A stretch of DNA of 64,000 nt, taken from an uncultured delta proteobacterium. Its GTDB lineage: Bacteria; Myxococcota; Myxococcia; Myxococcales; Myxococcaceae. The notes beneath the pieces are model-generated. The model saw nothing but the letters and a program-made list of their open reading frames with translations, did no database searches and was not told where the DNA came from. Position numbers and translations under genes: made by a program. Shown here piece by piece: positions 1,031-7,654 of this stretch. Location: the NCBI GenBank assembly GCA_963771175.1, contig CAVYSY010000003.1, forward strand, positions 32,001-96,000. The letters are read 5' to 3'. Position 1 is the first letter of the stretch. Each line of letters begins with the position of its first letter.

Positions 1031-1082
1031 CATCCGCTATAGCAGATGAAGTTCTTGACAAGAAGAGGCGCTCGCGCACTGT
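1031..1082 (+). promoter_or_regulatory. palindromic operator plus sigma70-type promoter of the porin gene
   Basis: CATCCGCTATAGCAGATG (1031-1048, near-perfect palindrome), then 6 bp, then TTGACA (1055-1060); weak -10 candidate CACTGT (1077-1082). Confidence 0.6.
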
Positions 1083-1168
1083 CGGCTTGAAGGCTGACAC
1101 AGTGTTTCTCAGTAGGTTCTCGAATCCCCGGACGTCTCGCGGGCCCTTCCCCGTTACGAGGTGTCATC

Positions 1169-2446
1169 TTGGAAAACCCTATCTGGATGCTGGCCGCCGG
1201 CTGGCTCGCCCTCCCCGGCCCCGTGTGGGCGCAGCAGGCCACGGGAGACGAGAAGGAGGCGGCCGTCGTCAGCGCCGGGCCGGAGGGCTTCACCCTGTCG
1301 TCCCCCGACAAGCAGTTCCAGCTCAAGCTGCGCGGCTACGTCCAGGCGGACGGCCGGCTCTTCACGAGTGGCAAGGACCGGCCCGGGGGCAACACCTTCC
1401 TCATCCGGCGTGCCCGCCCCATCCTCGAGGGCACCCTCTTCGGATGGCTCGACTTCCGCCTGATGCCGGACTTTGGGAGTGGCACGACGGTCCTCCAGGA
1501 CGCGTACATGGACCTCCGCCCCCTGCCCGAGCTGCGGCTGCGCGTAGGCAAGTACAAGCCACCGGCGGGGCTCGAGCAGCTCCAGTCCGACACCCACATC
1601 GTCTTCGTCGAGCGCAACCTGCCCACCAACCTCGTCTCCAACCGGGATGAAGGCATCCAGGTCCACGGGGAGATTCTCGGGGGCGTGCTGACGTACGTGC
1701 TCGGAGCCTTCAACGGCACGCCCGACGATGCCAGCGTGGACTTCAACTTCGACGACAACGTGGACCTGGCGGGGCGCCTCTTCGCGCACCCGTTCCGCAA
1801 GAGCGCACTGCGGCCGCTCCAGGGACTCGGGTTCGGACTCGCGGCGAGCCGGGGCAGCCAGCACGGCTCGGCCACGAGTAGCGGCCTCGCGCCCTTCCGC
1901 ACCGTGGGACAGCAGGTCTTCTTCAGCTACCTCGTGAGCGCCACCACTCCGGCGGACACCGTCGTCGCCGATGGCGAGCACGTCCGGCTGATGCCCCAGG
2001 GCTACTATTACTGGGGACCGTTCGGCCTGCTCGCCGAGTACGTCTCCTCCGCGCAGGAGGTTCGGCGGGGCACCGAGCGCGCCCGGCTGAGGAACGAGGC
2101 GTGGCAGGTCCAGGCCTCCTACGTGCTCTTCGGCGGCAACGCCTCCTTCGAGGGAGTCCGGCCGACGCGCGCCGTGAAGCCCTCGGAGGGCAGCTGGGGC
2201 GCCGTCGAGCTCGCCGCTCGCTACGCCGAGCTGCACATCGACTCCGACGCCTTCCCCCTCTTCGCGGACCCCAGCCGCTCGGCCCGCGTGGCGAAGGACC
2301 TGGGCGCCGCCCTCAACTGGTACCTGGGCGGCAACTCCCGCATCGCCCTCAGCCTGGAGCGGACCACCTTCGAGGGCGGCGCCGCGGACGGGGGCGACCG
2401 GCCCACGGAGGTCGTCCTGTTCAACCGCTTCCAGGCGAGCTGGTGA
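1169..2446 (+). CDS. OprO/OprP-family anion-selective porin
   Basis: signal peptide; F-x-IRRAR motif, LQDAYMD, GKYKPP, WGAVELAARY; ends in aromatic residue (FQASW) as beta-barrels do; TTG start. Confidence 0.85.
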   Translation: MENPIWMLAAGWLALPGPVWAQQATGDEKEAAVVSAGPEGFTLSSPDKQFQLKLRGYVQADGRLFTSGKDRPGGNTFLIRRARPILEGTLFGWLDFRLMPDFGSGTTVLQDAYMDLRPLPELRLRVGKYKPPAGLEQLQSDTHIVFVERNLPTNLVSNRDEGIQVHGEILGGVLTYVLGAFNGTPDDASVDFNFDDNVDLAGRLFAHPFRKSALRPLQGLGFGLAASRGSQHGSATSSGLAPFRTVGQQVFFSYLVSATTPADTVVADGEHVRLMPQGYYYWGPFGLLAEYVSSAQEVRRGTERARLRNEAWQVQASYVLFGGNASFEGVRPTRAVKPSEGSWGAVELAARYAELHIDSDAFPLFADPSRSARVAKDLGAALNWYLGGNSRIALSLERTTFEGGAADGGDRPTEVVLFNRFQASW

Positions 2447-2451
2447 ACCGC

Positions 2452-2520
2452 CCTCCGCCATAGCGGACGTCCGTCATAACGGATGTTCCGCTTGACAAGC
2501 GGATGAGCCCCGGGCACCTT
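2452..2520 (+). promoter_or_regulatory. tandem palindromic operators plus sigma70-type promoter of the sulfate ABC operon
   Basis: CCTCCGCCATAGCGGACG (2452-2469) and CGTCCGTCATAACGGATG (2468-2485), then 6 bp, TTGACA (2492-2497), 17 bp, CACCTT (2515-2520). Confidence 0.65.
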
Positions 2521-2531
2521 GTGTCTCGTTC

Positions 2532-2612
2532 ATGCCCATCCCCCGCCACATGCACAGGCTGGTTTGTCGCTGTTGGCACCACGGGGTGGGCGCTCGCCCG
2601 CCGGAAGCCTGA
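2532..2612 (+). CDS. putative Cys-containing leader (attenuator) peptide MPIPRHMHRLVCRCWHHGVGARPPEA
   Basis: ATG 2532 to TGA 2612, read by hand; two TGT Cys codons (2565, 2571); lies between the promoter and a hairpin upstream of sbp. Confidence 0.55.
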   Translation: MPIPRHMHRLVCRCWHHGVGARPPEA

Positions 2613-2635
2613 GAGCTGACGGCCGCGTGTTCTGA

Positions 2636-2669
2636 AGAGCCCACCACCCGCGAGGGGCGGTGGGCTTTC
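2636..2669 (+). terminator. attenuator/terminator-like hairpin in the sbp leader
   Basis: AGAGCCCACC pairs with GGTGGGCTTT; inner CCC-GCGA-GGG stem with a GNRA tetraloop; only a short U tract. Confidence 0.55.
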
Positions 2670-2729
2670 GAGCTTCATGGGCCTGAAGCACCCCGGTACC
2701 TCGCGGTCACCTCATGCCCGAGGTACCGA

Positions 2730-3786
2730 ATGAAGTCGCTGAACCGTCGCACCACCGCCGCGCTGCTATCCGTGTTGCTGTCCGTCGTGCCCGCGCTGGG
2801 CGGCTGCTCGAAGCCGGCCAGCGCCCAGGGGGAGCCCGTCACCCTGCTCAACGTCTCGTACGACCCCACGCGCGAGCTCTACCAGGACTTCAACGCCGCC
2901 TTCGCGAAGCACTGGAAGGCGAAGACCGGGACGAAGCGTCACCATCAAGCAGTCGCACGGCGGCTCCGGCAAGCAGGCGCGCGCCGTCATCGACGGGCTG
3001 GAGGCCGACGTCGTGACGCTGGCGCTCGCCTACGACATCGACGCGCTCGCCGACAAGGCGCCAGCTCCTGCCCGAGGACTGGCAGACGCGCCTGCCGAAC
3101 AACAGCGCGCCGTACACCTCCACCATCGTCTTCGTGGTGCGCAAGGGCAACCCGAAGGGCATCCAGGACTGGGACGACCTCGCGCGGCCCGGCGTCGCGG
3201 TCATCACGCCGAACCCGAAGACCTCCGGCGGCGCGCGCTGGAACTACCTGGCCGCCTGGGGCTACGCGCTGCGCGAAGGCCGGCGGCGACGAGGCGAAGG
3301 CGCGGGAGTTCGTCGCCAGCCTCTTCAAGAACGTGCCGGTGCTCGACTCCGGGGCGCGCGGCTCCACCACCACCTTCGCCGAGCGCGGCATCGGCGACGT
3401 GCTCATCGCCTGGGAGAACGAGGCGCTCCTCGCTCACGAAGGAGGTGGGCAAGGACCAGTTCGAGATCGTCGTCCCCTCGGTGAGCATCCTCGCCGAGCC
3501 GCCGGTGGCCGTCGTGGACAAGGTACGTCGACAAGCACGGCACGCGCGCCGTGGCGGAGGCCTACCTCGCAGTTCCTCTACTCCGACGGAGGGCCAGGAG
3601 ATCGCGGCGAAGCACTACTTCCGCCCGCGCTCGCCAGACGGTCGCCGCGAGGCACGCCAGCCAGTTTCCCCAGCGTGCAGCCTCTTCACCATCGACGAGG
3701 TGTTCGGCGGCTGGGCGCAAGGCGCAGAAGGCGCACTTCGACGACGGCGGCATCTTCGACCAGCTCTATCAGCCGAGGCGCGGTAG
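2730..3786 (+). CDS. sbp: sulfate ABC transporter substrate-binding protein (several frameshifts)
   Basis: [42 protein letters not shown] and [10 protein letters not shown] spread over three frames. Confidence 0.92.
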
Positions 3787-3801
3787 CCCGGGAGCCACGT
3801 C

Positions 3802-4647
3802 ATGCAGGCGAGCGCGCACTGCGTCCTGCCGGGCTTCGGCCTGACGCTCGGCGTCACGCTGGCTCTACCTCGGGCCTCGTCGTCCTGCTGCCGCTGGCCG
3901 GACTCTTCCTCAAGACCGTCACGCTCACGCTGGGCGCAGTTCTGGGCGACCGTGACCTCGCCGCGAGCGCTCGCCGCGTACCGGCTCAGCTTCGGCGCGG
4001 CGCTTCGTCGCGGCGCTCGTCAACGCCGTCTTCGGGCTGCTCGTCGCCTGGGTGCTCGTGCGCTACCGCTTCCCGGGCCGCGGCGCTCGTCGACGCGCTG
4101 GTCGATCTGCCCTTCGCCCTGCCCACGGCGGTCGCCGGCATCACGCTCACGGCCCTCTACTCCCAGAACGGGTGGATCGGGCAGTACCTCGAGCCGCTCG
4201 GGCTCAAGGTCGCCTTCACGCCGCTCGGCGTCGTGGTGGCGCTCACCTTCGTCGGCCTGCCCTTCGTGGTGCGCACCGTCCAGCCCGTGCTGGAGGAGCT
4301 CGACGCGGACGTCGAGGAGGCCGCCGCCACGCTCGGGGCCACGCCGCTGGCAGACCTTCACGCCGCGTCCTCTTCCCCAGCGTGCTGCCCGCGCTGCTCA
4401 CCGGCTTCACGCTGGCCTTCGCCCGAGCCATCGGCGAGTACGGCTCCGTCATCTTCATCTCCGGCAACATGCCCATGCAGGACGGAGATCGCCCCGCTGC
4501 TCATCGTCACCAGGCTCGAGCAGTACGACTACGCCGGCGCGACGGCCATCGCCGGTGGTGATGCTCGCGGTCTCGTTCGCGCTGCTGCTCGCCGTCAACG
4601 TCCTCCAGCGCTGGAGCCACCGCCGCTTCGAGGCCCGGCCCGGATAG
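3802..4647 (+). CDS. cysT: sulfate ABC transporter permease CysT (frameshifted)
   Basis: [59 protein letters not shown]. Confidence 0.9.
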
Positions 4648-4654
4648 GAGTCCC

Positions 4655-5508
4655 ATGCACCCGACCTCGCTCACGCCGCGCCGAGACAGGCGCACCGTCT
4701 CCGGGTCAGCGCCCGTGCGCTGGCTGCTCATCGGCGTGGCGCTCCTCTTCCTCGGGGTCTTCCTCGTCGTCCCGCTGGTGGCCGTCTTCGCGCTACGCCC
4801 TGCAGAAGGGCGTGGGCGCGTACCTCGCGGCCATCCAGGAGCCCGAGTCCCTCGTCGGCCATCCGCCTCACGCTGCTGACCGCCGCCGATCGCCGTGCCG
4901 CTCAACCTGGTCTTCGGGCTCGCCGCCGCGTGGCTCATCGCCAAGTTCCACTTCCCCGGCCAGAGACGTGCTCCTCACGCTCATCGACCTGCCCTTCAGC
5001 GTCTCGCCCGTCATCGCGGGGCTCGTCTTCGTCCTGCTCTTCGGCCGGCAGGGGTGGCTCGGACCGTGGCTCGCCGACAGGGACATCCACATCATCTTCG
5101 CCGTGCCCGGCATCGTGCTGGCCACGGTGTTCGTCACGTTCCCCTTCGTCGCGCGCGAGGTGCTGCCCGTCATGCAGGCGCAGGGCAACGACGAGGAGGA
5201 GGCCGCCCTGTCACTCGGCGCGAGCGGCTGGCAGCACCTTCCTGCGCGTGACGCTGCCGAAGGTGAAGTGGGGCGTGCTCTACGGTGTGCTGCTGTGCAA
5301 CGCGCGCGCGATGGGCGAGTTCGGCGCCGTCTCGGTCGTCTCCGGGCACGTGCGCGGAGTGACGAACACGCTGCCGCTGCACGTCGAGATTCTCTACAAC
5401 GAGTACAACTTCGCCGGTGCCTTCGCCGTGGCCTCGCTGCTCACGTTGCTCGCACTGGTGACCCTGGCCGCGAAGAAGTACGTCGAGTGGAGGGCCGAGG
5501 CCCCATGA
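4655..5508 (+). CDS. cysW: sulfate ABC transporter permease CysW (frameshifted)
   Basis: [43 protein letters not shown]. Confidence 0.9.
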
Positions 5509-6566
5509 GCGTCATCGTCGAGCAGCTCACCAAGCGCTTCACCACCGGGGGCACGCCCGCCGTCTCGGATGTGTCGTTCCACGCCCCGTCCGGAGCCATC
5601 ACCACCCTGCTCGGGCCCTCGGGGGCGGGCAAGTCCACCCTCCTGCGCCTCATCGCCGGGCTCGAGCATCCGGACTCCGGTTCCGTCCACATCGAGGGCG
5701 TGGACTGTACGTATCTGCCCGTGCAGAAGCGCGGCATCGGCGTCGTCTTCCAGAGCTACGCGCTCTTCAAGCACATGACGGTGCGGCAGAACGTCGCCTT
5801 CGGGCTGGAGACGCGCCGGCTGCCCCGCGCCGAGATGGAGGCGCGCGTGGACGAGATGCTGCGCCTGGTGCAGCTCGAGGAGCTGGGAAAGCGCTACCCC
5901 GGGCAGCTCTCCGGCGGACAGCGGCAGCGCGTGGCCTTCGCCCGGGCGCTCGCCATCCGTCCCAAGCTGCTGCTGCTCGACGAGCCCTTCGGGGCGCTCG
6001 ACAGCCGCGTGCGCGTCGAGCTGCGCGAGTGGCTCCAGTCCCTCCACGAGCAGACGGGCGTCACCACGCTGCTCGTCACCCATGACCAGGAGGAGGCGCT
6101 CGAGATCTCCCAGCACGTGGTGGTGATGTCCGAGGGGCGCGTGGCCCAGGCCGGGCCGCCCGAGGACATCTATGACAGGCCGGCCACGCCGTTCGTCGCC
6201 TCCTTCGTGGGCGGCACCAGCGTCCTGCGCGGACGCGTCCAGTCGGGCCGGGCCCAGATGGGAACACTCGTCGTGGCGGCGCCCGACAGTGCCCGTGAGG
6301 GCGAGGCGGTCCACGCGTTCGTCCGTCCGCACGACATCAAGCTCGCCAGGCCCGCCAACGGCTCCACCGCGCTCACCACGGGCCGTGTCGAGCGGCTGAA
6401 GTCCGTGGGTGGCTACGTGAAGGTGTTGCTCAAGCTCCCCTCCGGAGAGACGGTCACCGTCGAGGTGCCCCGCGCCGAGTTCGACGACCTGGGCGTCGTC
6501 GAGGGCGACCACGTCCACGCGGACGTGCGCATGGCCAAGGTGTTCCTGGGCGACTTCGCCATCTGA
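5505..6566 (+). CDS. cysA: sulfate ABC transporter ATP-binding protein CysA
   Basis: Walker [31 protein letters not shown]-terminal TOBE region; ATGA overlap with cysW. Confidence 0.93.
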
Positions 6567-6586: not shown

Positions 6587-7654
6587 TCAGCGCATGGGCG
6601 ATGGCCTGTCCGTCACGCCCGCCTCGGTGAACGTGGCCATGTCGTGCAACACCGCCAGCGCCGCATCCACCAGGAAGAAGGCCAGCGCCGCGCCACTGCC
6701 CTCGCCCAGGCGCAGCCCCAGGTCCAGCAACGGCCGCTGTCCCAGCTCCTCCAGCACCCGCATGTGCCCCACCTCCACCGAGAGGTGGCTCGCCAGCAGG
6801 TACGGCTTCACCCCCGGGCACAGCCGCACCGCCACCAGCCCCGCCACCGAGGCGATGAACCCGTCCAGCATCACCGGCACCCGCCTCGATGCCGCGCCCA
6901 GCGCCACGCCCGCGAGGCCGGCGATCTCGAAGCCGCCCACCTTCGCCAGCGCGTCCAGCGGCTCGCCCGCCTCGGGCCGGTTCACCTCCAGCCCCCGCCG
7001 CACCGCCGCCACCTTCCGCGCGAGCCCCGCGTCGTCCACCCCCGTCCCCCGCCCCACCACCTCCTCGGGCGACAGCCCCGTGAAGACGCACGTCAGCGCG
7101 CTCGAGGCCGTCGTGTTGCCAATCCCCATATCCCCCAGCCCCACCAACCCCACGCCCTCCTCCACCAATCCCCACGCCACCTCCACCCCCACGTCCAGCG
7201 CCGCCTCCGCCGCCTCGCGCGTCATCGCCGGCCCCCGCGTGAAGTTCGCCGTCCCCGGCCCCATCCGCCGCACCTTCACTCCCCCCAGCCCCTCCACCGG
7301 GTGACGCACGCCCATGTCCACCACCTCCACCCGCGCCCCCACCTGCCGCGCCAGCACGTTGATGGCCGCCCCTCCCCGCGCGAAGTTCGCCACCATCTGC
7401 CCCGTCACCTCCGCCGGGTACGCGCTCACTCCCTCCTCCACCACCCCGTGGTCCGCCGCCATGACCACCACCGCCTTGGCCGGCATGGCCGGCGAGGGCT
7501 TGCCCGTCATGGCGGCGAGCCGGCAGGCCAGCTCCTCCAGCCTCCCGAGGCTCCCTCGTGGCTTCGTCTTCGCGTCCAGCAGCGCCTGACAGCGAGCGGC
7601 CACTCCAGCGTCCGGCTCGGGGAGGGAGGACAGGAGGGAACGGTACGAGGGCAT
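6587..7654 (-). CDS. cobT: nicotinate-nucleotide--dimethylbenzimidazole phosphoribosyltransferase
   Basis: KTKPRGSLGRLEE, AADHGV, GDMGIGNTT, KVGGFEIA, LRLGEGSGA, MATFTEAGV. Confidence 0.95.
   Translation of the reverse strand: MPSYRSLLSSLPEPDAGVAARCQALLDAKTKPRGSLGRLEELACRLAAMTGKPSPAMPAKAVVVMAADHGVVEEGVSAYPAEVTGQMVANFARGGAAINVLARQVGARVEVVDMGVRHPVEGLGGVKVRRMGPGTANFTRGPAMTREAAEAALDVGVEVAWGLVEEGVGLVGLGDMGIGNTTASSALTCVFTGLSPEEVVGRGTGVDDAGLARKVAAVRRGLEVNRPEAGEPLDALAKVGGFEIAGLAGVALGAASRRVPVMLDGFIASVAGLVAVRLCPGVKPYLLASHLSVEVGHMRVLEELGQRPLLDLGLRLGEGSGAALAFFLVDAALAVLHDMATFTEAGVTDRPSPMR

Follow-up and report, generated by a model that had tools for sequence, protein, structure and literature searches.

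Cysteine-codon leaders are known from actinobacteria, as the first-pass annotation of this DNA had noted, and one has also been predicted, with a terminator beyond it, before cysS in Rhodobacterales (PMC8632094, in its accessible part). According to the accessible text of bioRxiv 10.1101/834739, the polycysteine leaderless short ORFs of mycobacteria act on translation; they had been predicted earlier in PMC1262725, whose accessible portion presents the actinobacterial Cys leaders without terminators and has no Met leaders among them. For methionine, the proteobacterial controls covered in the accessible part of PMC4239095 are MetJ, MetR, SahR, SamR, SAM/SAH riboswitches and a metXZ element. 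Myxococcales go unmentioned in the accessible parts of PMC4239095, PMC2965389 and PMC4833913. The literature that we searched, with subscription papers mostly outside its scope, yielded no myxobacterial or Met-codon attenuator. A genome-wide attenuator survey was reportedly published by Lopatovskaya, Seliverstov and Lyubetsky in 2010 and could include such leaders.

Here, we describe a leader in a myxobacterial window, by which we mean the whole stretch of 64,000 nucleotides that was analysed. The element is real and conserved and, in our best reading, built like a classical attenuator with a candidate terminator. This attenuator reading is based on sequence, conservation, a match between codons and downstream pathway, and computed folds. 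We put the probability of ribosome-mediated attenuation that senses Cys-tRNA supply at roughly 85% for the ribosome sensor alone; that termination forms at least part of its output appears moderately probable from the same sequence and folding data. The new aspects would probably be the lineage, the target genes, a probable double output and a pair of Cys and Met paralogs.

The leader upstream of sbp

The first-pass annotation had described a near-leaderless ORF of 26 codons, Cys-Arg-Cys encoded by TGT twice although TGC is the commoner codon, and a GNRA-capped hairpin ending in TTT whose 5' arm is complementary to an upstream GGTGGGC. All of these are present in the window, in the following arrangement.

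2492..2520, plus strand: predicted sigma-70-type promoter (TTGACA 2492-2497, 17-nt spacer, CACCTT 2515-2520)
2532..2612, plus strand: leader ORF of 26 codons, no SD (ORF list, family comparison)
2533..2543, plus strand: segment 1, in 1:2 pairing without a ribosome, -30.9 kcal/mol (folding)
2565..2573, plus strand: sensing codons TGT-CGC-TGT, Cys-Arg-Cys (sequence, family conservation)
2585..2591, plus strand: segment 2, the antiterminator arm GGTGGGC (folding, conservation)
2594..2630, plus strand: middle hairpin inside the 2:3 helix, holding the leader stop codon (folding)
2634..2645, plus strand: segment 3, the shared arm, with GCCCACC at 2639-2645 (folding, covariation)
2648..2655, plus strand: top of the 3:4 hairpin, CCGCGAGG, with a GCGA loop; complementary to segment 5
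2659..2669, plus strand: segment 4, then a short U tract; candidate terminator in the form of the 3:4 hairpin
2695..2706, plus strand: segment 5, the anti-SD arm (folding)
2719..2727, plus strand: segment 6 with the sbp SD (GAGGT 2720-2724); 5:6 hairpin of -24.7 kcal/mol (folding)
2730..6566, plus strand: the controlled operon sbp-cysT-cysW-cysA, frameshifted in the present assembly

The leader ATG lies 11 nt past the predicted -10, and the ORF would have a 5' leader of about 4-5 nt. Across the 79 intact leaders of the family, the distance from the -35 to the ATG is 39-40 nt in 60, and a gap of 8-12 nt between the -10 and the ATG, likewise in 60, implies a 5' leader of about 1-6 nt from the predicted start. 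An SD-like 4-mer precedes the leader ATG in just four of the 79, and efficient SD-less initiation at this ATG is assumed. The accessible start-site file of a Cappable-seq study of M. xanthus (PMC8844925) is limited to fruA, mrpC and c-di-GMP genes and holds nothing on the sbp or met leader loci, and one start in it, at -1, means that leaderless mRNAs occur in M. xanthus. A consensus scan of the window called neither the leader promoter nor the leader terminator, the plasmid collection gave no match, and a search of sequencing runs listed no RNA data set.

Genome-wide, TGT accounts for 14.5% of Cys codons, and 11 nt separate the last Cys codon of the leader from the start of GGTGGGC at 2585. 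Among 20,000 resampled sequences, 163 contained an ORF of 15-35 aa with CC or CxC and 35 a heptamer triad for segments 2, 3 and 4, with none containing both. The window assembly is prone to indels, but the length of the leader ORF and its CxC are backed by a 93% identical relative (L010), in which the ORF is equally long and the CxC identical. The Sbp of an intact relative clears the TIGR00971 and NF008022 cut-offs, the window ATPase (cysA) scores slightly under that of TIGR00968, and cysT and cysW were identified by eye. Many frameshifts are seen across sbp, cysT and cysW (window 2730-5500) and are probably assembly errors. The ORF that faces cysA on the minus strand (6587-7654) we take to resemble CobT, nicotinate-nucleotide dimethylbenzimidazole phosphoribosyltransferase.

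With respect to RNA structure, the region 2520-2735 folds with z = -3.48, none of 200 shuffles being as good. GGTGGGC recurs at 2659-2665, and the 3:4 hairpin (-27.6 kcal/mol) is followed by TTT at 2666-2668. The helices 1:2, 2:3 and 3:4, computed for the family leaders, are mutually exclusive, and segment 2 is computed to pair upstream (1:2) in 78 of the 79 naked leaders. The proposal that this geometry is that of a Cys attenuator gains support from simulated stalling, in which the RNA of 18 leaders was cut away as far as 9 or 12 nt beyond the Cys codons (assumed footprints). With removal to 9 nt past the last Cys, P(2:3) is at least 0.79 in 18/18 leaders once segment 3 is out; 2:3 then prevails until segment 4 is complete, when 3:4 replaces it, and several leaders pass through one intermediate length at which 2:3 dips below 0.4. 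In the full-length equilibrium fold, 3:4 wins despite the stall in 17/18 leaders, indicating that the choice of antitermination must be kinetic and made during transcription.

Covarying stems were seen in part. In the 3:4 helix, pairing amounts to 97.6% and 4 of the 11 pairs have changed on both sides, whereas the 2:3 core, which leader extraction required, is conserved and barely covaries, with double-sided change in a single cell. We rejected a kink-turn in the middle hairpin, as a symmetric register is equally good and the motif is missing from the Pyxidicoccus and Met leaders. A loose genome-wide regular expression for the hairpin was uninformative.

Under the mechanism that we propose, transcription would start about 4-5 nt before the ATG at 2532 and the ribosome would load without an SD. 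When Cys is scarce, it would stall at the TGT codons and mask segment 1, leaving segment 2 free, and 2:3 would pair before segment 4 exists, letting RNA polymerase continue into sbp-cysTWA; the freed hairpin top would then pair with segment 5 and loosen the hairpin over the sbp SD. With ample Cys, or no translation, segment 2 would lie under the ribosome or stay paired in 1:2 and 3:4 would form, upon which part of the transcripts would end near 2668-2672 and the read-through molecules would keep their SD blocked. What the first-pass annotation gave of this design is supported; it had omitted the 1:2 helix, the hairpin over the sbp SD, the Met paralogs and the operator-like palindrome.

Putative sensing codons, downstream genes and the upstream porin

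The 79 distinct intact leaders were picked by promoter spacing, helices and ORF length, codon content not being used, and they are kin rather than independent trials. Thirty-two stand before met genes, namely metY in 24 cases and a metX-like gene in eight. The other 47 precede sbp (27), porin-like genes assigned by motif (12), a second porin (4), a 31-aa ORF (3) or an uncalled gene (1), with Pfam checked for three of the porin-like genes. That the ORF and its Cys codons should be conserved had been set beforehand as a test of the attenuator, and this is borne out: all 47 non-met leaders carry 2-5 Cys, with 11-15 nt between the end of the last one and segment 2 (GTGGG), and the rare TGT is present in each. 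Apart from Cys, any given residue is present twice in the sensing zone of at most 12 of these 47. Four His are found in just one, which rules out His sensing and removes an earlier caveat about the four His codons of the window leader.

By comparison, every metY/metX leader has 2-4 internal Met, while two internal Met occur in just one of the 47 others. Five of the 32 Met leaders are without Cys and 11 have two or more; because Cys also lies within the sensing zone in 27, these leaders may sense both amino acids. When leaders were extracted structure-first, 84/84 had at least two Cys or Met in the ATG frame without a stop, compared with 40/84 and 0/84 fitting in the other two frames, where stops occurred in 26 and 5. 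A later extraction, covering 28 loci of which three were read by eye, gave 15 new sequences (two of them in the training set of model R2, described below), and all 15 obey the codon rule. The exceptions are a distant copy (L293) that precedes metY with five Cys and a single Met, and three Cys leaders (L158-L160; L159:1671-1766) that precede a 31-aa hydrophobic ORF without a Pfam match, after which comes a separately promoted ABC transporter binding protein.

It is conceivable that the switch is thrown not by codons but by a ligand (a riboswitch), an RNA-binding protein or nascent-peptide arrest, with the Cys and Met codons kept for RNA pairing. Segments 2-4 hardly vary, CGA-ATG is found in 24/32 Met leaders and is base-paired in 23 of these 24, and 77/79 internal ATG of the Met leaders are followed by T or C (40% genome-wide), suggesting a constraint at the RNA level. 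However, the sensing codons stay in the ATG frame across 14 distinct lengths from ATG to segment 2, and the number of Cys varies from 2 to 5 with exchange of TGT and TGC. The peptides are otherwise unconserved (43 distinct among the 47 Cys leaders, and the reading frame beyond the Cys is variable), which is what one would expect if nothing but the pause and the stop position mattered. Rfam provided no convincing match either, with three unrelated matches far below gathering scores in the window and none at E up to 1 in nine relative loci. We therefore judge a trigger other than the codons unlikely and favor sensing by the translating ribosome.

Upstream of the leader, we observe the following features.

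1033..1168, plus strand: deleted sister leader before the porin, with operator, promoter and SD hairpin kept and the ORF and segments 1-4 gone
1169..2446, plus strand: OprO/P-family anion porin (PF07396, E 1.6e-24)
2454..2483, no strand: two tandem TCCG-N6-CGGA palindromes (2454-2467 and 2470-2483), a candidate transcription-factor operator

The leader of the porin is intact, with three Cys, in relatives L012 and L038. A porin on the same strand just upstream of the leader, together with operator-like palindromes, would also suit a hairpin that is a plain terminator or stabiliser of the porin transcript, with the ORF incidental or making a free peptide and the operator alone in control. We regard this as very improbable, as the hairpin lies downstream of a conserved promoter, the upstream gene at L016 is divergent and the leader still intact, the operator is missing at 42/79 leaders, and the match between codons and pathway would be left unexplained.

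The tandem palindromes are instead a candidate second layer of control above the ribosome sensor. The TCCG-N6-CGGA motif is found at the remaining 37/79 leaders. In the genome of the window, it occurs at the promoters of sbp, the porin, metY (C32:554719) and cysH (C4:14873), and also precedes a gene for an XRE-HTH and cupin protein (G000:C58:7416-8366). These sites may represent a sulfur regulon with the XRE-HTH-cupin protein as candidate regulator, a protein that may resemble E. coli SutR/YdcN. An extremely Met-rich ORF of 144 aa lies near this gene (G000:C58:6886-7320). SahR and SamR were rejected as the factor for the operator, since their 20- and 24-bp palindromes, as given in the accessible part of PMC4239095, differ from TCCG-N6-CGGA.

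Proposed termination and SD control

The short U tract, named as a caveat at the outset, remains one: the window has TTT followed by CGAG, and family members usually have 3-5 T in 8 nt, compared with 5-7 T in 8 nt in the best gene-end hairpins of the genome (52 of 1274). With respect to the second possible output, the segment 5 arm of the window matches the 3:4 hairpin top as an exact complement, and we evaluated this relay in the 62 leaders that lie 30-110 nt from their gene, leaving out 17, including several before metY at 156-169 nt. Opening the ribosome binding site is more than 1.4 kcal/mol cheaper in the 2:3 state in 50/62 leaders and costlier in none, the cost falling from 20.7 to 9.5 kcal/mol in the window. 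The relay beats at least 19 of 20 shuffles in 20/62 leaders, and with 2:3 enforced in the window, another fold has a lower energy. The loop and the SD share CGAGG, so their complementarity is partly built in.

These observations bear on a reading in which the same ribosome sensor has a translational output only, 3:4 withholding the SD-freeing strand without termination, as in the mycobacterial polycysteine leaders. A weak U tract and a strong SD hairpin (-24.7 kcal/mol) would both fit, and the hairpin top matches segment 5 over at least eight bases in 36/62 leaders. Two deletion variants (L024, L025), which lack the antiterminator and segment 5, retain 3:4 and an intact sbp. On the other hand, the dominance of 3:4 on full-length RNA suits a one-time co-transcriptional decision, several metY leaders are too distant for the relay range given above, and the shared CGAGG lowers the weight of the complementarity. 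In addition, hairpins of like kind stand at ordinary gene ends, and the tract of L293 is a run of 7 U. We thus consider an exclusively translational output rather unlikely, though better placed than the other alternatives. Taking the weak U tract and the SD hairpin relay together, leaky termination combined with SD control is the most likely output.

Family distribution, Met-codon paralogs and known systems

By BLAST, the region is present in 17/17 genomes of the same genus, which contain 14 intact sbp leaders besides that of the window, and two porin leaders. Named loci that share this leader type point to Archangium as the probable genus. The named Pyxidicoccus loci have the same layout and four Cys. 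Model R1 (15 sequences) matches in 48/150 genomes of the family, representing 9/51 genera, and model R2 (43 sequences) gives matches with E below 1e-9 in 56/150 genomes of the class, many of them in or near its training set. Outside a few genera, most searched genomes have no R1 or R2 match, and no scaffold was found before sbp at the Hyalangium locus L042. Copies in other families precede sbp (L237, L238), a DUF2325 gene (L223), a Sulf_transp protein (L284) and metY (L293), and one further copy in the same family precedes DUF4395 (L193). Five weak R1 matches (L202, L239, L241-L243) were rejected, being hairpins that lack a leader ORF and mostly stand at gene ends, and of eight weak R2 loci screened, only L293 has a leader ORF. 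Deletion variants (L024, L025, L026, L187 and the window porin leader) were excluded from the leader counts; in L187, a natural deletion puts the leader ATG in frame with the porin. Separately, polycysteine short ORFs lie 180-270 nt upstream of an sbp match in two Terriglobia genomes (L073, L111).

In the genome of the window, R1 matches in two places, the sbp leader and a leader before a metY-type sulfhydrylase that is followed by a metX-like gene. This Met paralog (L002, G000:C32:554719-556274) reads Cys, then Met-Trp-Met. Alignment of the Cys with the Met class opens a one-base gap where the sensing codons lie. Because a pyrimidine follows 77/79 internal ATG, all 32 Met leaders read C-x-C in the frame of most Cys leaders. 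An origin of the Met leaders by frameshift fits these data, yet the base pairing of the CGA-ATG stretch explains them as well. The Met leaders do not keep the +1 frame open, as stops occur there. That one scaffold was duplicated and retuned from Cys to Met by a one-base shift of frame, with both copies acting by termination and the SD relay, is a tentative idea, less probable than the sensor or its terminating output. The cysH leader of the same genome (L217, G000:C4:14841, minus strand) has another scaffold, with a Cys/Met-rich ORF, a U-rich terminator and a CGA-ATG pair, and matches neither R1 nor R2.

We propose that myxobacteria tune sulfate uptake and methionine synthesis without Rfam riboswitch families. 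The Cys/Met pair on one scaffold would offer a built-in control of specificity, as exchange of a few codons should change which amino acid is sensed, and the family predicts sulfur-related roles for OprO/P-like porins, DUF2325, DUF4395 and the Sulf_transp-family protein. If true, the retuning from Cys to Met would represent a Met-codon attenuator and a traceable path for changing the amino acid of an attenuator.

Among known systems, the proteobacterial methionine controls share the targets metY and metX with the Met-codon paralogs. In the accessible text of PMC4239095 they involve no leader peptide, and the terms "Myxococc", "attenuat" and "peptide" are absent from it. The predicted Rhodobacterales leader uORFC-8-2 resembles the window leader in having two tandem Cys codons (14-15) and then a terminator, and differs in phylum, in its cysS target, in its dominant UGC where TGT is enriched here, and in its consistent U run (PMC8632094, accessible part). 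The mycobacterial "Cys ribulon" leaders of the Ms5788A type, as far as the accessible descriptions go, likewise carry Cys codons in an ORF close to the start and upstream of sulfur genes, together with a sequestered downstream SD. Their regulation does without a terminator, the Cys tract base-pairing directly with the SD region (bioRxiv 10.1101/834739, accessible part). No such pairing was found in the window fold; there, segment 5, about 130 nt further along than the Cys codons, sequesters the SD. Compared by description, the myxobacterial leader would pass its signal through 2:3 and 3:4, with Cys in mid-ORF and an ATG probably 4-5 nt from the start. With the classical attenuators (trpL, hisL, pheL, thrL and leuL, textbook examples that the accessible introduction of bioRxiv 10.1101/834739 also treats), it shares a short ORF of cognate codons, the 1:2, 2:3 and 3:4 helices, a proposed stall site 11-15 nt before the antiterminator and a stop codon ahead of segment 3. 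Unlike them, it would read Cys or Met, lacks an SD, has a predicted very short leader and a short U tract, and adds a hairpin over the downstream SD, importer and porin targets, and one scaffold for two amino acids.
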